Virus record (IMG/VR): IMGVR_UViG_3300002855_000236
Coordinates: 1-58,689 of that record
Source: a virus
Taxonomy: Duplodnaviria; Caudoviricetes
Reading direction: 5' to 3' (one strand)
Length of the DNA stretch: 58,689 nucleotides
Positions 25,440-58,689 of this stretch are shown piece after piece. The stretch's first letter is position 1. The number at the start of each line of letters is the position of its first letter. The notes beneath the pieces are model-generated. The model made no database searches. It was not told the origin of the DNA and saw only the letters and a program-made list of their open reading frames with translations. The position numbers were made by a program, and so were the translations under genes.

Positions 25440-25633
25440 TGAATTAGAATGGTTGGCCATTGTTCACAATAGGATCTTACGGAAATCAAAAGCCTAATAG
25501 CATATGCCACGCGTACTTACCATGCAAAAAGAATTTATCGTTTATGTACTCTTTAAATTTCTATGATTCGACAATTTATGTAAATCTATAGTAGAATGTT
25601 GACGTGTCGGTAAATCTCTGCGAGGTGTGTTCA

Positions 25634-26512
25634 ATGTCAATTAATTCATTACAATCAACTATCAATCGCTTGCAAGGCGAAATCGCTGATCTATACAAGA
25701 AAATAAGCAATGAAAAGAAAAAAGAAGCTGATGCAACGACCAAAATCATAAGGGCGCAGCAATCAATTGCAAAATCAAGCTCACAAGCCACAATTAGAAG
25801 TAAGCTCTCTGAAATAGATCGCAACAACAACGACGTGGCGCGATCGAGCAAAAATCAAGCGGACTTACAGAGAAAAGTGGCTGATAAAAGCAAGGATTTG
25901 ATTCGATACCAGCAGCAACTATCAAAAGCAATTGAAACTGAAAATAAAAAGCAGCTAGAAGCACAGAGGAATATGGAACAAAGACTACTCGCTTCCCAAC
26001 AAGATTTGGCCAAGGAACTTGAGGATCAAAAGGGGCTGATTCGCGAAGGCGGATTGGTCTCTTCAAGACTGGCATCCACTGCATCTGCAGAGGATTATGC
26101 AGAACCAGAATATGATGTTTTTATTTCGCATGCCAGTGAAGATAAAGACGACTTCGTTCGTCCTCTCGCTGAAGAACTTGTAGGGATTGGCGTTAAAGTT
26201 TGGTACGACGAACATTCAATGCGATGGGGCGATAGCTTAAGACAATCGATCGACAAGGGTTTGGCAAATTCCAGGTTTGGGATCATTGTAATATCAACTC
26301 ACTTCGTTAACAAACCTTGGCCAGCTTATGAATTGGACGGTTTGATTGCAAGAGAAATTGAAGGGGGAAAGGTTGTACTACCCATTTGGCATAAAGTTTC
26401 TAAGAGCGAAGTTATGAAGTTTAGTCCGACGATGGCTAATAAGATTGCTTTGAACTCTTCGATTGATGAGATAAGTGATATTGCCAAGCAATTAAAGGAA
26501 ATGCTACAGTAG
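25634..26512 (+). CDS. Coiled-coil plus TIR-domain protein (TirS/TcpC-like, probable NADase)
   Basis: YDVFISHASEDK, VWYDE, WPAYELDGL (catalytic Glu position), VLPIWH; GAGGTG RBS at ATG 25634. Confidence 0.9.
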   Translation: MSINSLQSTINRLQGEIADLYKKISNEKKKEADATTKIIRAQQSIAKSSSQATIRSKLSEIDRNNNDVARSSKNQADLQRKVADKSKDLIRYQQQLSKAIETENKKQLEAQRNMEQRLLASQQDLAKELEDQKGLIREGGLVSSRLASTASAEDYAEPEYDVFISHASEDKDDFVRPLAEELVGIGVKVWYDEHSMRWGDSLRQSIDKGLANSRFGIIVISTHFVNKPWPAYELDGLIAREIEGGKVVLPIWHKVSKSEVMKFSPTMANKIALNSSIDEISDIAKQLKEMLQ

Positions 26513-45977: not shown

Positions 45978-47840
45978 TTACACTTCCACCCCCTTGTTTA
46001 CCTTCCCGCGGCGTTTGGCAACAGGTTTCTTGATTGGCACCGAGTTGCTTCCCGCGCCTTCTGCTTCTTCGCGCATCCGCTGGAGTGTCGCGAGCGTCGG
46101 TTCCCCGCCCATGATCTCGAGCGCGGCCGTGGCGTAATTCCGGCAGTCGAGTGCTTCATTTCGGGATCCGGCGATCCTCAGTTCCCAATGATAAACGGCC
46201 CGCCCCTTCACCATGCGTCTCACACGATGCTCAGAAGTTATCTGGTGGAAATAGTCCTCCTCGTATCCGGCGTCCTGCTTCATAGGGAAATGGCAATAGC
46301 CCGGCTTGTCCTCGAAACGGACGGCCAGGCGCGATGATAGAGTATCCTTACCGACGTCGACCCCGATGATAAACAGCCAAGCGCCCTCGTCGTTCCGCTT
46401 TTTAGGGCGGGTAATAAACGGGATGCCCGAGCCGCCTCTGCCTTTGATCGCCCATACTCGTCGCGCCTCTCTCTTCTTGCATGCGGTATAAACCTCTTTC
46501 GTATTATGGCCGCCGGAGTCGACGCACGTCGTCATCACCTGCAACTGCTGACCGTCAGCTCGTCGGAAAGTGTTGGTGATGACCTGCGTATCTAGCATTT
46601 CCCATACGTAATTCTGGCCCGGGTCGCCCATGATGACGCCGTATCGGACACCCCATGACTTCGCATCAGGCCCCCATCCGACGACCTCGTACTCGAGCCG
46701 GTTACCTTGGACGTCTACGCCACACGTGAGCAGCAGGACGTCGTTCGGCACCTCGGCGGCGTATTGCTCCCGGCGCTTTATCAAGTCGTCGGCATCGACG
46801 CCCGTCCCCTTCTCTTCCCACGTTTCCCCCAGAGACGTATTAATCCAGACCTTCAGCTTCTCGGGGCCGCCACGCTCGGCCGTTACGAAATCTTCGACGA
46901 TCTCATTCCAACGTTTCCAAGGGCTCGCGAGCTCGTTCAGGTGAAAACCTCGAACCTTCTTATTCTGCACGCGGGCTACCCATTCACCGGTGCCCGATTT
47001 CCATTCGCGCTCGCTATGCATAGCACCGCAATACTTGCAGGCCATGGAAACAGCAGTACATTTCCTTCGTTCTTTGTCATACTCGAATTTCACTTGGGGC
47101 CAAGACAGCGGTTGTCGTTCCGCGCAACTGGGGCAAGGAAGGCACCATTGTTCTTGGCTACTTTCCTCGTAATACTCATCAATACTGGATGAACCTTTGA
47201 TCGTCGGCGTGCTCGCCAGGATTCGTTTTCTATTCCAGAATGTTGTTGTTCGCTTGGTTGCAAGTTCGACCGGATCGCCTTCTGTTCCGGCAGATACCGG
47301 AAAACGATCAACCTCATCTGCAATCAGTATCCTGATTGGACGACTCGCCAACGAAGCAGGCGAGTTTGCACCTGCCAAAGTAACATGTCCACCAGGGAAT
47401 GTTTTGTGAAGCAGTGTATTTCCGCCGTCACGGGATTTAGTCCGTATTCGCTCATTAAGTGCTGGCGTATCACGAATCATCGGTGAGAGTCGATCTTTCG
47501 AATAGGCCTCTGCCATATCGAGCGTCGGCTGCAGAAACATTACCGGCGCAGGATCCTGATGGACATGGAAACCGAGGATATTCGACAGTATCGCCGTTTT
47601 CCCGATTTGTGCGCTCGTCTTGAAAATTGCGGTGTCTGTTTCTGGGTCGCAGATAGCATCCATCATCTCACGCTGGTACGGCGCCCTGTCTGTCCGCCAT
47701 CTACCGGGCTCCGATGAGTCTTCCGGCGATAACCTGCGATATTCGTCAGCCCATCCGGAAACTTTTAGGACCGGCGGCGGAGCGACGACTGCTGCGAGAC
47801 TTCGGAAAAGTTGAATCGTTCGGGCTTTAGGTTTGCCCAT
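45978..47840 (-). CDS. Terminase large subunit (lambda gpA family)
   Basis: SAQIGKT, DEVDR, STPT, CPSC, GVDVQ, DSGG, NEALD. Confidence 0.96.
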   Translation of the reverse strand: MGKPKARTIQLFRSLAAVVAPPPVLKVSGWADEYRRLSPEDSSEPGRWRTDRAPYQREMMDAICDPETDTAIFKTSAQIGKTAILSNILGFHVHQDPAPVMFLQPTLDMAEAYSKDRLSPMIRDTPALNERIRTKSRDGGNTLLHKTFPGGHVTLAGANSPASLASRPIRILIADEVDRFPVSAGTEGDPVELATKRTTTFWNRKRILASTPTIKGSSSIDEYYEESSQEQWCLPCPSCAERQPLSWPQVKFEYDKERRKCTAVSMACKYCGAMHSEREWKSGTGEWVARVQNKKVRGFHLNELASPWKRWNEIVEDFVTAERGGPEKLKVWINTSLGETWEEKGTGVDADDLIKRREQYAAEVPNDVLLLTCGVDVQGNRLEYEVVGWGPDAKSWGVRYGVIMGDPGQNYVWEMLDTQVITNTFRRADGQQLQVMTTCVDSGGHNTKEVYTACKKREARRVWAIKGRGGSGIPFITRPKKRNDEGAWLFIIGVDVGKDTLSSRLAVRFEDKPGYCHFPMKQDAGYEEDYFHQITSEHRVRRMVKGRAVYHWELRIAGSRNEALDCRNYATAALEIMGGEPTLATLQRMREEAEGAGSNSVPIKKPVAKRRGKVNKGVEV

Positions 47841-48366
47841 CTATATCAACCCCTGCTTCTGCTCCTTCCCGGAAAAGCTCCGGATCGTAATCGGCGAGTT
47901 CTGCCAAAGCTTCATGCAAATCCTTGGTCAATTGAGCCTTGATGATGTTTATGTCGTCGATACCGGCTATCTGCGGTGAAAGTTTAGTCGGAATGGAAAG
48001 GATCTTCTGCCGGAATGCGGTGATCATGTCCGACATGACAGCCTCGACGTCTTCCGCAGAGTGCAATTCACCACGCAACTGCGATAGTTGAAGCGCAGCT
48101 CGTTCCGTCTTAATCCGTTCATGTTCCGTCTTATGGTCGATATACCTCGGCTTCGAGTCTTCCTTGCCTCCCGCAGCGTGCTCTACGTAGGCCTGAATCG
48201 CCTCTCCAAGGATGTATTTTCCGCGACTGACTTGAGTCAGCACGTTATCCGTAGTCAATTGACGTATCCAGCGAGGTGTTTTTCCGATAATTTGGGCCAA
48301 TTCGCCGCCCATGACTTCCATATCGCTCAAAAGAGGCTTCGCTTCCGCTTTTTTTCTTGCCATCAC
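47827..48366 (-). CDS. Terminase small subunit (Nu1-like)
   Basis: N-terminal wHTH (LAQIIGKTPRWIRQL) plus coiled coil. Confidence 0.88.
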   Translation of the reverse strand: MMARKKAEAKPLLSDMEVMGGELAQIIGKTPRWIRQLTTDNVLTQVSRGKYILGEAIQAYVEHAAGGKEDSKPRYIDHKTEHERIKTERAALQLSQLRGELHSAEDVEAVMSDMITAFRQKILSIPTKLSPQIAGIDDINIIKAQLTKDLHEALAELADYDPELFREGAEAGVDIDGQT

Positions 48367-48504
48367 CTCACCTCAACTTCCGCTTTTCGGAATTTAACTG
48401 TAATAAAAATATTTACACATCATTTGAAGCGATCTTTGGGCCGGATTCACGTTTCACGAAAAATGAGGAAGAGGAAGCGATTTTTCGACTTTGTGTCTAG
48501 CCGC

Positions 48505-48555
48505 TTTTTGGGCTCTCTTGTACCCGCAGGCACCCGAAGTGCCGGAAGGACCCGT
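48505..48555 (-). other. Probable cos site (lambda-like cosQ plus cosN)
   Basis: Minus strand ACGGGTCCTTCCGG...GCGGGTACAAGAGAGCCC resembles lambda ACGGGTCCTTTCCGG...; upstream of terS. Confidence 0.65.
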
Positions 48556-48815
48556 CAGACGCCCGGAATCGACCATTTCCGACACGATACCCCGCTGTCT
48601 GGTACTCCAATACCCCAAAACGCTTAGAACACCATTTATGGGCGCGACAGATGCATTTCCGCATTCCTGCCCTACCGACCCTACCATTCAATTGCCTGTT
48701 GTCCACTCGTCAGCGCCCGCGAGAGCCGCGCCGCGCAAAGAATTGAATCTCTGTACCTCTGACGGAGAACGCTGCTCATAACGTATGCCATAGAGTTCAG
48801 CGCTTCGATCTTGTA

Positions 48816-49323: not shown

Positions 49324-49491
49324 CATATATATAGATCTTATCTTTAAAGTTATCTTTAAATATCTTTCTTAGTCCCCTAAATGGGGGACACCTCCGTCCC
49401 CTAATTGGGGGACACCCCGTCCCCTAAATGGGGGACACCCCCCGTCCCCTAAATGGGGGACACCCTAACCGTCCCCTAAATGGGGGACACC
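49324..49491. repeat. Five 21-bp palindromic repeats GTCCCCTAA(A/T)TGGGGGACACC plus AT-rich TATCTTT repeats; origin-like
   Basis: Copies at 49372, 49396, 49419, 49444 and 49471; AT tract 49324-49371. Confidence 0.85.
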
Positions 49492-49576
49492 CCCTCGAAA
49501 ATGGAGCTCTTTATCAGCAGGGAAGATATGCGTAAAAGTGCAAATATAAATCAATGAAAAAGGCGCCTTCAGGCGC

Positions 49577-49890: not shown

Positions 49891-50241
49891 TTACCAAGGA
49901 ATTTCTTCGAACGACTGGCTTTTAGCTACCGCGCCGATGATGTCCGCGATCTGGAATTGTTCGCCTTCGACGGTGAACGTTCTCGAATAAGGATCGACTC
50001 TATCGACGACGCCGATCACCGCCAAATCTTCATATTTATGATAAAGCTGAAATTCGGCCGTCACCCTCATCCCCAGTGACTCCATGAGCACGCGCATGAT
50101 CTGCTCTTTTTCCTGCTCGTCCAGCACCGGCCGCTCGCCGCGGAATTTGTCTCGATGATGGAAATGCGACTGCAACGCCGAATCGTGTTCCGGAATTATG
50201 AACTTCGATTTCCAACGCTCGTTGCCACCCAGATTAAACAT
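49891..50241 (-). CDS. YolD-like protein (start ATG 50241)
   Basis: RWKSK.IIPEH, RPVLDEQE; GAGGGTG RBS. Confidence 0.85.
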   Translation of the reverse strand: MFNLGGNERWKSKFIIPEHDSALQSHFHHRDKFRGERPVLDEQEKEQIMRVLMESLGMRVTAEFQLYHKYEDLAVIGVVDRVDPYSRTFTVEGEQFQIADIIGAVAKSQSFEEIPW

Positions 50242-50282
50242 AACAGGATCACCCTCAAATAATTTGGTGTTCCCATTATACG

Positions 50283-50296
50283 CGAACACTCGTTCT
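50283..50296. promoter_or_regulatory. LexA (DinR) SOS box at yolD promoter
   Basis: CGAACACTCGTTCT matches GAAC-N4-GTTC; adjacent minus-strand TATAAT. Confidence 0.8.
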
Positions 50297-50321
50297 TATA
50301 TCCAATCTTATTTTTCGATAC

Positions 50322-51185
50322 ATCGAAGCCTTCAACCGGCGCATAGCCAGAAACACGTATCAGGTGTTCCCCTTTGCGCGACTGCCTCCCAGTTGGCCCG
50401 GTTGAAGGCTTCGATCTATGAGCGGGCGAGGAGGCCCGCTCTCTTCAAACACGGCCATTTGCTGACGCAGGCCGCAAGCGCTGCCGATCCAGACCTTATC
50501 GCTTGGCATCAACGCGTAAAGGTCTCCTTCGTACCCGTCGGCTTTCCCCGCCGGAGGTCCATGCCATCGAAGGATGTTGGGGAGGTCTGGAGTGTCAAAA
50601 TTGAGGAATAAGCAGTGTTTACCGGACCAGGGTTCCGACCCCTGTCGCATACCAGAACGCCCCTAACGGACGTGGCGGGATTCGAACCCGCTCTCTCGTG
50701 TCTATTCCCACCCAGTGGGCAATCCGGCATATGGAGCGGACGGCGGGATTCGAACCCGACGTAATCGGCTTGGAAGGCCGAGGCATTGCCTTTATGCTAC
50801 GTCCGCATAGTGGTCGGCGCCGAACACCTTGGAGTTGCCGCCGACCTACTTGACTCTTTGTGCGTCGCTCATCTTTTCCGCCCTTAACTCCCTCCTATGG
50901 GAAGGGTAGGTTTGACTTAGAGCCTTGGACTTTTGCACGCACGATATTGTTTGTGGGCCGCGGGCCACTCTCCCGCGGATGGCAATCCTCAAAATGCCGC
51001 TTGTTTGACGCGATCTCTACGTTCCGTCTCTCTTCCGGCACCCACGACAATACATTGACGATTTACATAAGAGCTCGGAAAACCGCCGTCGGAGCTTTCA
51101 CCGCAATAGAAAAAGCCGACCTATTGGCCGGCTCGATCGACGAGGCGTTCACGCCCCGCGGTGTCCTCTGTGCGATTTCCTGATG
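50322..51185 (-). ncRNA. Candidate large structured ncRNA or ncRNA array containing tRNA-Gly
   Basis: No credible ORF; consecutive long stems; tRNA-shaped modules; upstream extended -10. Confidence 0.55.
50732..50806 (-). tRNA. tRNA-Gly(TCC) with 1-nt T-stem bulge
   Basis: GCGGACG/CGTCCGC acceptor, CTTCCAA anticodon loop, TTCGAAT T-loop, TCCA end. Confidence 0.88.
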
Positions 51186-51190
51186 ATATA

Positions 51191-51199
51191 AATATACCA
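51191..51199 (-). promoter_or_regulatory. Extended -10 (TGGTATATT) without a good -35; probable activator-dependent late promoter
   Basis: Faces ncRNA region and packaging genes; hairpin plus T tract at 51110-51133. Confidence 0.5.
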
Positions 51200-51262
51200 T
51201 GGTCCAAGTCCAATAACACATAATACGATTTCAAAATTCACTCATAATTACCGCACGAAGAA

Positions 51263-52366
51263 TCAAGATGTAGTGACCAATAATTGGAATACATAATTCC
51301 CCACTACACCTGCTATTACACTAGTAACAAAACTGATAATAAATTTCCAAAGCCCCTTATTAGATTCTCTTTTAATAGATTCTTTATATTTTAATGACTC
51401 CTCTGTTAAACACAAAAAGGAGGATTGTATTTGTATATCATCTATCATGAGATCGAATATTACACCGATAAAAATCGCTATTGTTGCTGAGGCAATCAGA
51501 ACAACAGTGATAAATTGATTAAAACTCAACCATTCACCCGCAGCAATATATTGTGAAATGAAATTTACTTTATCATCTAATGAAGACGATGAGGAAATTC
51601 CATCATTAACTTTGCTCAAAGAATAATCCGCAAATTTACTAGTAGTGAGTATACATCCAACAATCGATATCAATAAAAACAATATACCTCCGAAAATAGA
51701 TACACTATTTTTATATTTTGACAATAAACTGATAAATGTCCTTTTAGACTCATCCATACAACTTTTAACTTGGAGAGTCAATAACGAGTCAATGTCATTC
51801 CCCCATGATCTAGCGGTGTGATTAATTATATGCATAATCCGTCCTGGTTCATTTTTAAATCTGATGATATTCCTTTTGTCGTTAAGAAACGACATTTTAT
51901 TATTTGAGTAATGATCAGAAATAATTATTAACTCTATTTCTTGTTTCTCAGGGAATTCTCTGTCAGCGAATTTGACTAAGTATGACCAATAAACATTGAT
52001 ACTGGTGGAAATAACTTTACGCAACTCATTGTATGTTTTAAATTCTTCAAGGGAGCTCATTGTAACTGAAGAATCATCATCGTAAGAAATTTTAACAGTA
52101 AATTGAACTAGTTCTGCTACATTCTGTTGTTTTATTCTCTGTTCCAATAAATGATAAATGTTAATGATATCATTTTTATGTATCTCAAATGACCCATAAA
52201 AACTTCGGGAAAGTTCTTGCGGCTTTCCAAGTAAACTTGATATAAAATCTTTAAATCCCTCCTGATTAAGAGGAAGACTTACAAACCCTTGCTTTACTGA
52301 AGCATCTGGTTCAATGTCAATAATGATATTTTGATGACTTGTTTTTTGAATCGTCAAATTAATCAC
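51263..52366 (-). CDS. AT-rich membrane protein (soluble N-domain plus ~3 TM), unknown function
   Basis: AAGGTGA RBS; hydrophobic C-terminal helices; low GC. Confidence 0.75.
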   Translation of the reverse strand: MINLTIQKTSHQNIIIDIEPDASVKQGFVSLPLNQEGFKDFISSLLGKPQELSRSFYGSFEIHKNDIINIYHLLEQRIKQQNVAELVQFTVKISYDDDSSVTMSSLEEFKTYNELRKVISTSINVYWSYLVKFADREFPEKQEIELIIISDHYSNNKMSFLNDKRNIIRFKNEPGRIMHIINHTARSWGNDIDSLLTLQVKSCMDESKRTFISLLSKYKNSVSIFGGILFLLISIVGCILTTSKFADYSLSKVNDGISSSSSLDDKVNFISQYIAAGEWLSFNQFITVVLIASATIAIFIGVIFDLMIDDIQIQSSFLCLTEESLKYKESIKRESNKGLWKFIISFVTSVIAGVVGNYVFQLLVTTS

Positions 52367-52463
52367 CTTTTCGATTTATTAATACATTTCCACCCATAAT
52401 AATCCATCACCTTCCAATCGTAAAGATAATAATTACATATCATATCGATATTCATGTTATGAG

Positions 52464-53330
52464 TTATATATAGAAGAAATCAACAAACTCCGGTGACCTA
52501 AGAATTCCAGCCCGAGTCCAATTCCTAAACCGCACTTTCACATTAATTTTCGGTTCCACGAATACAAATTCGCGATCCTCACTGATAGCGATTTTTTTTG
52601 CAATTTGATAAAATGCTCTCTTATGGTCCGACGGTACCGCAAGCTCGATAATCCCAACCGGTCGCCCCCGATACGTCGCTAGCCATCCGAATTGGTCCTT
52701 TCGGTATCCCGCAATCTGAACGACATCGTAATTGTAGTTAATGATCTTGATCCAGTTGGCATCGCGCCGTCCGGTATAGCGGCTTGTCTGCTTCTTTGCG
52801 ACGATTCCCTCGAGCTTCTTTTGCTGGATGACATCAAACAGAGCGACACCAGTCCCAGGGACGCTCAAGATGGGAGAGAAGAACTGATTTGGCGTCAGCA
52901 CTTCCCGAAGGATCCGCTTGCGCTCCGTGAGTGGCAGCGCCCGCAGATCGCGCCCGCGGTACCGCAAAATATCGAATGCGTAAAAGTGGACCGGCTGCCG
53001 TATCATCGCCTGCCGGATCGCCAGCGGCTTTCGAGTCGAAAATCGTTGCTGGATGAGCTCAAAATCGATCGTTCCGGTATCTGGATCGATGCAAGCGACC
53101 TCGCCGTCCAGAACGACGTCGGAGGTATCCTCGATCGGCACGTCGTGCAGCTCGGGGTATTGCCGCGTGACGTCGTTATTATGACGAGTAAAAAGACGGA
53201 CCTGCCCGGCCTCCATGGAGAGGATGAGACGGTGTCCGTCGATCTTGGGTTCGTATAGGTACCGCTCATCGTCGAACGGTTGCTCTCGCTTTTCCAAAAG
53301 CATCGGCTCGAGGAACATCCCGTACACCAC
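52464..53330 (-). CDS. ATP-dependent DNA ligase (minimal LigB/LigD-ligase type)
   Basis: EPKIDGHR, LDGEV, FDIL, EGIVAK, WIKI. Confidence 0.92.
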   Translation of the reverse strand: MVYGMFLEPMLLEKREQPFDDERYLYEPKIDGHRLILSMEAGQVRLFTRHNNDVTRQYPELHDVPIEDTSDVVLDGEVACIDPDTGTIDFELIQQRFSTRKPLAIRQAMIRQPVHFYAFDILRYRGRDLRALPLTERKRILREVLTPNQFFSPILSVPGTGVALFDVIQQKKLEGIVAKKQTSRYTGRRDANWIKIINYNYDVVQIAGYRKDQFGWLATYRGRPVGIIELAVPSDHKRAFYQIAKKIAISEDREFVFVEPKINVKVRFRNWTRAGILRSPEFVDFFYI

Positions 53331-57465: not shown

Positions 57466-58689
57466 GTGACCGTTATTAAGGATAAGACACTTAAGACTAA
57501 TCCTTGGTATTTCGTAATTGAAACCGGCGAAGGTAAGGACAGAAAGAGAATAAAGCGCAGGGGATTTAAGCGAAAGCAGGATGCGGAAGAAGCTGAGAGA
57601 ACACTTCGAAGTGAACTCAAGCTGGGGCTGAACATAGATGCTTCCAAAACAGTATACCGCGATTACATGGCCGATTATCTAAAAGACAAAAAAACGCGTG
57701 TTAAGGGGCGAACCCTTGATACTTATGAAAGCATGGTTAACAATCATATTTTGCCTGTGCGGAAAAATAGCGATGGGAAAGATGTGGGCTTAGGTGACCT
57801 GACCTTGGCTGAAATTACTCCTAGACATATTCAGAATCTTTATAATCACCTCCAAGAATCAGGATCTCTATCTGGAGAGAATATCCAAAAGGTTCATACA
57901 CTTATCAATGAGTCATTGGAGAAGGCGGCTGGCTGGGACATGATAATTAAAAACCCCGCTGCCGTTGTTGATCGCCCGAAAGCAGAAACTAAAGAAATGC
58001 TCTATTGGAATGAAGAAGAATCCCACAAATTTTTAGAGGCAGCTAAAACGGATCGATATTACCACGCCTTTCTTTTGGCATTAACCACTGGAATGAGGCA
58101 AGGTGAAATACTCGGATTAAGCTGGGCCGACGTCGATACTAAACGCAGGACCATATCTGTAAGACAAACTCTGGATCATTATGGCAAGCAGATTGATCAA
58201 GGCACAAAGACGATTTCAGGTATGCGTTCGATCGGTATCGACAAAACAACCGCGGCAGAACTGGACGCCCTAAAGCATCGTTTTAATGAAGAGAGAATGG
58301 CAAACAAAGATATTTACAATGAAAAGTTCCAACTCGTCATAAGCACTAAACTAGGCTCTCCATTGTCCCCGAGGAATCTTAATCGATCCTTTGAAAGGAT
58401 AGTCAATAAGATCAATGATGCTATTGCTGAAGGTGAAGACAAACTAAAGAAGATCAGATTCCATGATCTTCGTCATACTCATGTTGTTATGCTCCTGAAG
58501 TTGAGGGAGAACAACAAAAGGATCGCTGAGCGCATGGGATGGTCAAGCGTTAAGATGTTAGATCGCTATTCGCACATAACAGCTCATATGCAACAGGAAA
58601 CTGCTGACGCTTTCGGGGAAATGTTCTTCTCGAAACAGGAGGAAACGGAGGGGAAATTGGTGCCGAAATTGGTGCCGGAAGCTAAATAA
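57466..58689 (+). CDS. int: Tyrosine integrase with N-terminal arm-binding domain
   Basis: RRGFKRK, TGMRQGE, FHDLRHTH, MGWSS, RYSH. Confidence 0.96.
   Translation: MTVIKDKTLKTNPWYFVIETGEGKDRKRIKRRGFKRKQDAEEAERTLRSELKLGLNIDASKTVYRDYMADYLKDKKTRVKGRTLDTYESMVNNHILPVRKNSDGKDVGLGDLTLAEITPRHIQNLYNHLQESGSLSGENIQKVHTLINESLEKAAGWDMIIKNPAAVVDRPKAETKEMLYWNEEESHKFLEAAKTDRYYHAFLLALTTGMRQGEILGLSWADVDTKRRTISVRQTLDHYGKQIDQGTKTISGMRSIGIDKTTAAELDALKHRFNEERMANKDIYNEKFQLVISTKLGSPLSPRNLNRSFERIVNKINDAIAEGEDKLKKIRFHDLRHTHVVMLLKLRENNKRIAERMGWSSVKMLDRYSHITAHMQQETADAFGEMFFSKQEETEGKLVPKLVPEAK
58658..58676 (+). repeat. Two TGGTGCC arm-type repeats within the integrase 3' end
   Basis: Encode KLVPKLVP; same motif as 1569-1626. 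Confidence 0.8.

Follow-up and report, generated by a model that had tools for sequence, protein, structure and literature searches.

A putative ArpU-dependent late promoter with a conserved structured leader RNA and a mosaic of RNA modules in an IMG/VR provirus

Late gene control in temperate phages of Gram-positive bacteria is usually described as an activator acting on a promoter, as in the Ltr, ArpU, and RinA families. In phage lambda, the late region is headed by the promoter PR', the 6S RNA, and the terminator tR', and works with Q. The put RNA of HK022 and the EAR RNA of Bacillus subtilis are leader elements for processive antitermination. The late operons of Gram-positive phages are activated by proteins of the ArpU family, whose binding sites are direct repeats preceding the terS promoter, and ltr genes are located at the end of the replication module (PMC3753634). 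GOLLD and ROOL RNAs are often found in prophages and near tRNAs (PMC5737381). In the zipper-type attenuator of pLS20-family conjugation operons, an antiterminator is formed when the terminator pairs with a segment upstream of it (bioRxiv 10.1101/2025.11.24.689506). Here, the gap at 50317-51199 on the minus strand of the IMG/VR provirus record IMGVR_UViG_3300002855_000236 is analyzed. The window, that is, the whole analyzed stretch of 58.7 kb (58,689 nucleotides, nt), corresponds to this provirus record, and its minus strand carries most of the genes.

The gap has no supported open reading frame (ORF) and holds a tRNA-Gly(UCC) gene and several conserved folded modules. With moderate confidence, the locus is considered to be an ArpU-dependent late promoter followed by a cis-acting structured leader RNA, named M1 here, behind which optional RNA cassettes would be co-transcribed and matured around the tRNA. 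The elements on which this reading is built are the following.

51187-51262, minus strand: late promoter region, with the extended -10 TGGTATATT (51199-51191), a tandem TTGGAC, and two upstream ATTATG(A/T)G direct repeats
51071-51185, minus strand: M1 leader RNA, ~115 nt with four helices, matching the covariance model R1 with 101.9 bits
1861-2340, minus strand: gene for an ArpU-family late activator of 159 aa (TIGR01637 of NCBIfam, E = 1.3e-19, 70.7 bits against a cut-off of 43.1)

A first-pass annotation of the same DNA had described the gap as a GC-rich, non-coding, tRNA-associated locus that heads the late region and is read on the strand of the late genes (minus), and this description holds. 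None of the seven ORFs in the gap matches a PHROG, and the closest relative (L185; loci are given L numbers and genomes G numbers) differs from the gap by indels of 1, 2, and 5 nt. Hidden protein genes were dropped on these two grounds, as the indels break the frame. The GC content is 53-60%, compared with 30-32% in the adjacent upstream gene. The G-U pairs in M1 and M2 would read A-C on the other strand, and the tRNA-Gly is inside the gap. Its individual elements were recovered as well: the extended -10; a hairpin with a T tract, GAGCCGGCC-AAUA-GGUCGGCUU at 51134-51110 on the minus strand, which the terminator scan also finds; the tRNA-Gly at 50732-50806, called as tRNA-Gly(TCC) by ARAGORN and matching the Rfam tRNA model RF00005 at 50735-50806 with 60.8 bits against a gathering score of 29; and an 18-bp stem, whose inverted-repeat arms (50318-50339 and 50398-50419) are 22 nt long and 95% complementary. 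Two points had been overlooked. The promoter and the hairpin with the T tract are parts of one larger conserved fold, M1, and the position of the locus is accounted for by a link to the ArpU late activator.

M1 is composed of an outer helix P0, a helix P1a, a 5-nt bulge AAAGC, a helix P1 (CACCGC/GCGGUG), and a three-way junction with P2 and P3. P0 pairs the first nucleotides of the RNA with a tail ~100 nt downstream. P2 is a 6-bp hairpin (51157-51142) with the loop UGAA in the window and UGNA across the family. P3 (51134-51110) is a terminator-like hairpin with a U tract. It has the shape of an intrinsic terminator ~95 nt from the start, with 9 pairs (6 G-C) at 51134-51113 followed by TTTCTATT. 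A conserved GCGGUGAAAGCUCC is found at 51104-51091, and the most conserved letters of the family are CACC and GGUGA. A K-turn at the AAAGC bulge was considered and dropped, as the sequence misfits the tandem G-A rule.

The support regarded as decisive for RNAs in the gap is comparative. The search for covariation among homologues that the first-pass annotation had proposed revealed compensatory changes in M1, in the modules M2 and M3, and in one hairpin of domain A, all three described below. R1 gave 55 matches in the collected loci, representing 53 distinct sequences. In the alignment of these 53 sequences (A10), 89.9% of cells are paired, compared with 73.2% after shuffling (0/500) and 36-44% after sliding, and compensatory change is seen at 26 of the 32 pairs, including all nine pairs of P0; this alignment was fitted to the model structure, and the pairing figures are therefore inflated. 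In an unfitted MAFFT alignment of 18 sequences (A7), 81.1% of cells are paired, against 76.9% shuffled (0/500) and 35-46% slid. By helix, the figures there are 96.7% for P1, 98.1% for P2, 87.2% for P3, and only 54% for P0, because internal-loop lengths differ. When 27 M1 sequences were aligned with plain MAFFT, P2 was the only helix that RNAalifold retrieved; five of its six pairs are compensatory. Folding of single sequences yielded the same architecture in most of 27 sequences. Cognate P0 strands form duplexes of -15.6 kcal/mol, compared with -10.7 kcal/mol for non-cognate strands, and the cognate partner ranks first in 7 of 20 cases, which is moderately supportive.

Relatives were collected through the large terminase subunit, TerL. 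The search with a TerL alignment supplied 80 metagenome loci and 80 genome loci, which were compared by blastn and nhmmer. Two separate islands of similarity were observed among them. The promoter/hairpin end of the gap matches two Paenibacillus prophages (L104 and L105) and a phage contig (L014). The junction closed by the 18-bp stem matches a prophage in a Bacillaceae metagenome-assembled genome (L090), where the closing stem is wholly different in sequence yet complementary. Genome contigs searched with a single TerL protein gave no match, and viral contigs gave four loci with 41-47% TerL identity, lacking a tRNA and similarity to the gap. IMG/VR contained no match to the YolD protein and none to a 34-nt tRNA pattern; a 19-nt stem pattern had a single match there (L004), inside a coding region, which was taken as chance. 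In the cultured-phage collection, 41 records match the tRNA part only, and none covers at least 80% of the query. A BLAST search of the family with a tRNA-containing query was swamped by host tRNA-Gly genes (328/401 genomes matched).

The M1 island is present in 32 of 401 Paenibacillaceae genomes (BLAST, E ≤ 0.01). R1 matches were found in 33/151 genomes of an order-level sample and in 6/151 genomes of a class-level sample. In the genomes searched, M1 was confined to Paenibacillaceae, as judged from all six matches in the class sample and from every match listed in the order sample.

The sequences around M1 point to a promoter. When 51 M1 copies were aligned with their upstream sequences, conservation was seen in the initially transcribed TRTATCAT and in the -10, which reads TAnnAT and in most copies has the TG. 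Further upstream, the sequence differs from locus to locus, as do the direct repeats in it; L285, for example, has TGGCAG three times, and L286 has GTCCG three times. The two ATTATG(A/T)G repeats of the window, spotted by eye like the tandem TTGGAC, are possible ArpU sites.

In the window, arpU (1861-2340) follows the genes for the dUTPase and the metallopeptidase and closes the early operon, beside the tRNA-Val at the left prophage end. The end of the early/replication module is where the activator gene lies in Ltr/ArpU-controlled regions. A distance of 49 kb separates M1 from arpU, which is downstream and has the same orientation. In three of five other genomes tested (G002, G004, and G213), arpU is likewise downstream on the contig and strand of M1, at 51-56 kb. 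The fourth, G307, is a remnant with arpU 2.8 kb after the array, adjoining a tRNA-Val, and in the fifth, G001, the contig ends before this distance is reached. In all five tested unsplit loci (L277, L281, L284, L285, and L286), the ORF directly upstream of M1 belongs to the ArpU family (TIGR01637, E = 1e-20 to 1e-25). The corresponding ORF on the phage contig L014 encodes a sigma-70 region 4/LuxR-type protein. From this arrangement, arpU and M1 would be the two ends of the integrated prophage and would become neighbors across attP, int, and cargo genes after excision. M1 would thus be at prophage ends because the attachment site divides arpU from its target.

The genomic position of M1 was surveyed in 20 fetched 10-kb loci compared with the window (21 oriented loci), and then in 18 more loci, fetched because weaker R1 matches fell at syntenic chromosomal positions. 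In many loci, a tyrosine integrase, a serine recombinase, or tRNA-Val(GAC) adjoins M1. Accessory genes downstream include those for ATP-dependent ligase, YolD, Acb2/Tad1, acyltransferase, and YjcQ. Co-oriented terminase genes within 7 kb downstream were observed in 8 of the 21 oriented loci and are of two types, the gpA type (window, L249, L250, L252, and L253) and the TerL_ATPase type (L238, L246, and L251). M1 also precedes a Terminase_3 phage module in L285 and a TerL_ATPase module in L286. Eight syntenic chromosomal loci (L277-L284), which agree with one another in ORF lengths, have ImmA/XRE-like genes, an ORF of 164-193 aa, M1, and then a gene run. This run starts ~255 nt after M1 and consists of ORFs of 138, 440, 156, and 140 aa followed by a tape-measure-sized ORF. 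Pfam identified tail-terminator, sheath, tube, and XkdN-chaperone genes in L277 and L284 (ImmA/XRE were scanned in L277 only). The layout is that of a tail-only, PBSX-like cluster. M1 heads late operons of three terminase types, and tail-only clusters. In seven further loci (L272-L276, L288, and L289), two M1-like copies flank a gene of 606-616 aa upstream of sheath-/tube-sized genes; this gene is DUF4127 in L275, the sole locus scanned.

Downstream of M1, the gap holds the following modules. The z value is that of the minimum free energy (MFE) against 200 shuffles of each module.

50945-51052, minus strand: domain A, a multi-hairpin module with three copies only (window, L185, and L189)
50860-50942, minus strand: domain B, sequence-conserved, with two nearly identical copies (window and L185) and none elsewhere
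50812-50846, minus strand: hairpin 5' of the tRNA, z -3.45, present in L185 with some changes
50732-50806, minus strand: tRNA-Gly (anticodon UCC) with encoded CCA (ARAGORN; Rfam RF00005)
50620-50728, minus strand: probable tRNA 3'-half relic, with an exact 17-nt T-arm copy at 50674-50690 and an acceptor-like 3' strand
50446-50600, minus strand: M3 RNA module, 6 sequences, 26 pairs, 7 compensatory
50420-50441, minus strand: 8-bp hairpin with a CCUCCU loop (the CUCCUC hairpin), z -3.93
50317-50420, minus strand: M2 RNA module, a closing helix of 16-18 bp around a conserved three-helix core

The view that the gap is tiled with closed helical domains is only partly borne out by these values. Besides the two hairpins listed, z is -6.38 for the 18-bp-stem junction, -3.68 for the M1 leader, -2.53 for domain A, -1.51 for domain B, -1.28 for the tRNA-shaped module, and -1.0 for the multi-stem domain. 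The whole 901 nt fold equally on both strands, with z -3.4 on minus and -3.5 on plus (20 shuffles per strand).

In M2, nine sequences share 33 predicted pairs, of which 19 are compensatory, and the 16-bp closing helix has 10 covarying pairs. The paired cells amount to 93.5%, versus 76.3% shuffled (0/500) and 36-49% slid. M2 is rare and was detected by its model R2 in 3 of 151 family genomes. M2 was also considered as inverted repeats of the type of miniature inverted-repeat transposable elements; this was dropped, as the arms differ between copies. M3 is formed by a long-range helix CCAGACCU/AAGGUCUGG, a CCCC/GGGG helix, and two hairpins, one internal and one terminal with U-rich sequence behind it, with 95.5% of cells paired against 91.1% shuffled and 32-51% slid. 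It is directly 3' of tRNA-Gly in L189 and L199. One hairpin of domain A, CCGCGGG/CCCGCGG in the window, is changed to UCAUGGG/CCUAUGA and UCAUGGG/CCCAUGA, with three or four double changes. Domain B carries no covariation information because its only two copies are nearly identical. The hairpin with the CCUCCU loop is upstream of M2 in L180 too, and a similar hairpin, with a run of T behind it, is found in L210 and L213. In L090, the M2 copy is directly followed by a ~120-nt sequence (1656-1780) that has a tRNA-like acceptor stem, D arm, and T arm, with no call by ARAGORN; a gene for an HNH-AP2 endonuclease is directly upstream of it, and CTACGTTAGGTACAGT direct repeats follow.

Could these inverted repeats act as DNA, as single-strand hairpins or protein sites in replication, packaging, or recombination? 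The long, perfect M2 inverted repeat and the palindromes could extrude in DNA, single-stranded DNA tolerates G-T wobble too, and M1 is near the att/int end in many prophages. However, the arms of M2 and P0 vary between genomes yet stay complementary, unlike protein sites or transposon ends. The modules are always co-oriented with the conserved -10 and the late genes, and a conserved cos-like region exists elsewhere (48367-48671). A function in DNA is very improbable.

The tRNA-Gly has 74% identity with the tRNA-Gly genes of hosts and 79-81% with copies in other prophages. GGA accounts for 22% of Gly codons in the late genes, 25% in the early genes, and 40% in the low-GC cargo (n = 70 Gly codons). 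Codon supplementation by this tRNA was dropped, since the codon counts are not decisive. The segment behind it, 50620-50728, had been described as a tRNA-shaped module; it is not called as a tRNA by ARAGORN or Rfam, and the whole segment is missing from L185. It is probably an unconserved, non-functional dead tRNA fragment. Its exact 17-nt T-arm repeat lies 68 nt after the tRNA. Together with the lack of conservation and of significant stability in this segment and with mosaic flanks showing a GC jump, this repeat would suit the idea that the whole gap is debris, namely, the scar of an old integration at a tRNA, with degenerate DNA separating mobile cassettes. Compensatory changes keep M1, M2, M3, and the domain A hairpin and refute that idea for the three M modules; it is tenable only for the tRNA-shaped segment and possibly domain B. 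For the gap as a whole, it has hardly any probability.

The first-pass annotation could not assign the gap to a known family, and neither does Rfam. A cmscan of 50000-51500 with all 4227 models of Rfam 15, at E up to 10, gave only the tRNA and three chance matches (14.7-16.8 bits), and none of the other modules matches an Rfam family. In relatives, M1, M2, and M3 were unmatched in 11 loci at the gathering threshold and in another 11 loci at E up to 0.5. Retron, 6S, Y-RNA, riboswitch, and T-box identities were dropped, as Rfam gave no match; the Pfam scan of the large ORFs of the window contains no reverse transcriptase gene.

The distribution of the modules among genomes bears on whether the gap encodes one RNA. 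In the nhmmer comparison of the window with the flanks of M1 matches, the other parts of the gap were scattered among different genomes. M1 stands alone in most loci. It is accompanied by tRNA-Gly in L175 and L014, by domain A, tRNA-Gly, and M3 in L189, by M3 in L190, and by M2 in L180, L182, and L193. M2 or M3 is found without M1 in L090, L210, L213, and L216. Of 26 oriented loci, five have a tRNA-Gly(tcc) behind M1. On this comparison, the locus is a mosaic of modules that occur separately elsewhere, not one large RNA.

A single structured RNA of ~870 nt, of the GOLLD/ROOL kind and folding as one unit, had been proposed in the first-pass annotation. Its prophage location and tRNA neighbor are as for GOLLD and ROOL (PMC5737381), and one other genome (L185/L241), the only one found, holds the whole array in the same order with 81% column identity. 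Even there, L185 lacks two segments, the 105-nt tRNA relic and the 30-nt CUCCUC hairpin, and the remaining array is undisturbed. Each module is self-closing, conserved long-range pairing between modules was not seen, and the Rfam scan above gave no model match. The modular distribution across genomes is the main argument by which a single large RNA is disfavored, and the proposal is extremely unlikely. The alternative named in the same annotation, a processed array made late in infection, would agree with these observations.

Another explanation is that the tRNA, M2, M3, and domains A and B, perhaps with a short M1 ended at P3, act in trans on functions of the host or competitors, with M1 being mainly a promoter. 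For example, they would replace or decoy tRNAs cut by anticodon nucleases or titrate RNA-sensing defences; decoys of this kind had been suggested in the first-pass annotation. The M1-terS interval is an accessory-gene zone, with an ATP-dependent ligase near M1 in 6/21 loci, Acb2/Tad1 in L252, YolD in L238 and the window, an acyltransferase in L245, and YjcQ in L249. The copies of M2 and M3 without M1 resemble stand-alone RNA genes, a mini-island beside comEC (L236) holds only int, M1, and M2, and short M1 forms end at the terminator (L181 and L183). However, no defence or counter-defence partner consistently accompanies M2 or M3, M1 also heads the cassette-free tail-only chromosomal clusters, tRNA-Gly(UCC) is not known to be a nuclease target, and the codon use above has no strong signal. 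This explanation is considered unlikely as the main role of the locus.

In the preferred reading, that of an ArpU-dependent promoter with a cis-acting leader, the early operon would yield ArpU from its last gene. Once the genome is excised and circular, arpU would be upstream of M1, across attP, int, and the cargo genes. ArpU would activate the promoter formed by the locus-specific direct repeats and the conserved extended -10, and the first ~115 nt of the late transcript would fold into the conserved four-helix structure. M1 would most likely be cis-acting, with either the transcription complex or the transcript as its target. As most M1 copies contain a terminator-like hairpin, a checkpoint is proposed, in which passage through M1 would make late transcription productive by attenuation or processive antitermination. 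Alternatively or in addition, M1 may be a base-paired 5' end that stabilizes the long late RNA. Domains A and B, tRNA-Gly(UCC), the putative dead tRNA fragment, M3, and M2 would be cassettes behind M1. A simple scan found no sigma-A-like promoter between M1 and the tRNA and none for the cassettes; the tRNA and the cassettes would thus be co-transcribed from the M1 promoter, and tRNA-processing enzymes would release the cassettes as separate small RNAs.

Several points weigh against this reading, besides the inflated figures of the fitted alignment. Regarding termination, at least five U in the 8 nt after P3 are present in 38 of 53 copies; 15 copies lack them, and none of the eight tail-only loci has them, so termination cannot be the universal core function of M1. 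The 3' strands of P0 and P1 are downstream of the P3 U tract, and the complete fold therefore requires read-through. No alternative pairing for a classical attenuator or antiterminator was found in M1. Truncated copies in L181 and L183 lack the 3' half and have a short form ending at the terminator, and in L239 a truncated M1 faces convergent tail-fibre genes. Regarding ArpU, the ORF directly upstream of M1 belongs to its family in none of the seven int-proximal prophage loci tested, and the adjacency is not universal; this is expected if attP splits arpU from M1. Within the 5-kb upstream flanks of gpA-type TerL genome loci, M1 was found in only 2 of 80, so many related phages manage without M1. 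Finally, an SOS-type yolD promoter, a terminator-like site (49578-49561), and five palindromic repeats are between M1 and terS, and the promoter actually driving terS may be nearer to terS.

The yolD promoter, TTGGAT-N-TATAAT at 50305-50275 on the minus strand, is directly after M2 and contains GAAC-N4-GTTC at 50295-50284, which we take to be a perfect Bacillus-type LexA (Cheo) box. The promoter and the box are conserved in L185 and L182. This suggests that the yolD gene directly after M2 is SOS-controlled. The five tandem repeats of ~25 nt (49385-49500, minus strand) each have the palindrome GTCCCC-N6-GGGGAC. They are between the terminator-like site after a 78-aa gene and an AT-rich promoter-like stretch before a 102-aa gene, and no homologue was seen in the other loci compared. 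The block may be an array of binding sites for a regulator, or it may be the promoter region from which terS is in fact transcribed.

A bolder extension of the preferred reading can also be stated. M1 would be a new class of cis-acting RNA that, alone or with the sigma-like ArpU, makes host RNA polymerase terminator-resistant at the start of phage and tailocin late operons, as a Gram-positive counterpart of put. The protected leader would serve as a landing pad for small RNAs (M2, M3, A, and B) matured by tRNA enzymes and directed against defences. This extension is quite doubtful.

The remaining parts of the window are those of a temperate phage. Three genes mark its right half.

47827-48366: terS, late module
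45978-47840: gpA-type terL, late module
57466-58689: tyrosine integrase, ending exactly at the right edge of the window

The early operon spans 22710 to 1861 and encodes RecT, replication protein O, DnaB, a sliding clamp, methylases, dUTPase, and a metallopeptidase. The Pfam scan of large ORFs indicated that the late module combines lambda-type head genes (gpA terminase, lambda portal, gpD, and gpE) with P2-type tail genes. It extends to 26804, with tail-fibre and lysis genes at the far end. The closest TerL relatives are 70-72% identical, and the closest named ones are from Paenibacillaceae. The non-coding sequence directly upstream of terS (48367-48671) is conserved in at least ten other TerL loci (e.g., L014, L102, L104, L105, L107, and L133) and is probably the cos region of the lambda-type packaging module.

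Several neighboring features were also observed. A 30%-GC gene at 51263-53330, for a 367-aa membrane-type protein without a family match, is between the ATP-dependent DNA ligase gene and M1; the ligases of the six loci are homologous to it and within a few kb of M1. A TIR-domain protein gene (25604-26512, plus strand) is between the lysis genes and a repressor-like helix-turn-helix gene, on the strand opposite to the late genes. An Apyc1-like metallo-beta-lactamase gene (1-738) and tRNA-Val(GAC) (1401-1476) resemble host flank and attachment site, not phage genes. tRNA-Val(gac) is near M1 in L237, L241, L243, L247, and L248, and the Apyc1-like gene also adjoins in L243. In L247 (G028:C1:725052-738241), three M1 copies are found within 7 kb, interspersed with host-like genes, tRNA-Val(gac), an ISL3 transposase, and part of an integrase; the arrangement resembles integrated elements, tandem or decayed, that share a single attachment site.

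As a kind of element, the locus is known: it combines a late promoter region and leader of a phage with phage genes for a tRNA and small RNAs. What appears to be new is this particular family of leaders, its association with ArpU and with tailocin clusters, and the array of cassettes; no description of M1, M2, or M3 was found in the literature, with the supplement listing 224 motifs (PMC5737381) outside this search. The presence of a conserved, covarying leader between the late promoter and the structural genes suggests that the late transcript is controlled or protected at a second level, by RNA. M1 is common to phages of three terminase types and to domesticated tail-only clusters. Three RNA motifs with alignments are gained, and the locus offers a concrete system for the expression of tRNA genes and small RNAs from phage leaders.

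Compared with PR'-tR' of lambda, the locus likewise has a promoter and a terminator-like hairpin at about +95 heading a late operon, a second -10-like hexamer at the start, and lambda-type head genes. It differs in that the regulator is of the ArpU type and no Q-like gene was found; moreover, the sequence past the terminator is conserved and pairs with the 5' end. Ltr/ArpU late promoters (PMC3753634 and PMC3152322) share the ArpU gene ending the early/replication module, upstream direct repeats, which here may bind ArpU, and a promoter heading an operon for packaging, morphogenesis, and lysis. A conserved structured leader is not described in the extract of PMC3753634, whereas a ~115-nt fold is downstream of the -10 here, and in many M1 prophages attP, int, and cargo genes intervene between arpU and the promoter. 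Like put, EAR, and LoaP-dependent leaders (the last in PMC12691694), M1 is a conserved folded RNA right after the promoter of a very long mobile-element operon with terminator-like hairpins downstream. It has no Rfam match and differs by four helices and a terminator-like hairpin inside the fold. By analogy, M1 would work like these leaders without being one of their members. The zipper attenuator of pLS20 (bioRxiv 10.1101/2025.11.24.689506) is similar in its long structured leader, intrinsic terminator, long-range complementarity, and large Gram-positive mobile-element operon, whereas the 5' strands of M1 pair beyond the terminator and leave P3 intact in both MFE and consensus folds. GOLLD and ROOL share the prophage location and tRNA neighborhood; they have one conserved architecture (about 580 nt in ROOL), in contrast to a modular locus with modules of ~100-150 nt and no model match. 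As in other phage-encoded tRNA genes, the tRNA-Gly(UCC) is standard and has an encoded CCA. It differs from them by a promoter-less position inside a structured leader, and M1 and tRNA-Gly recur as a unit (5/26 loci).

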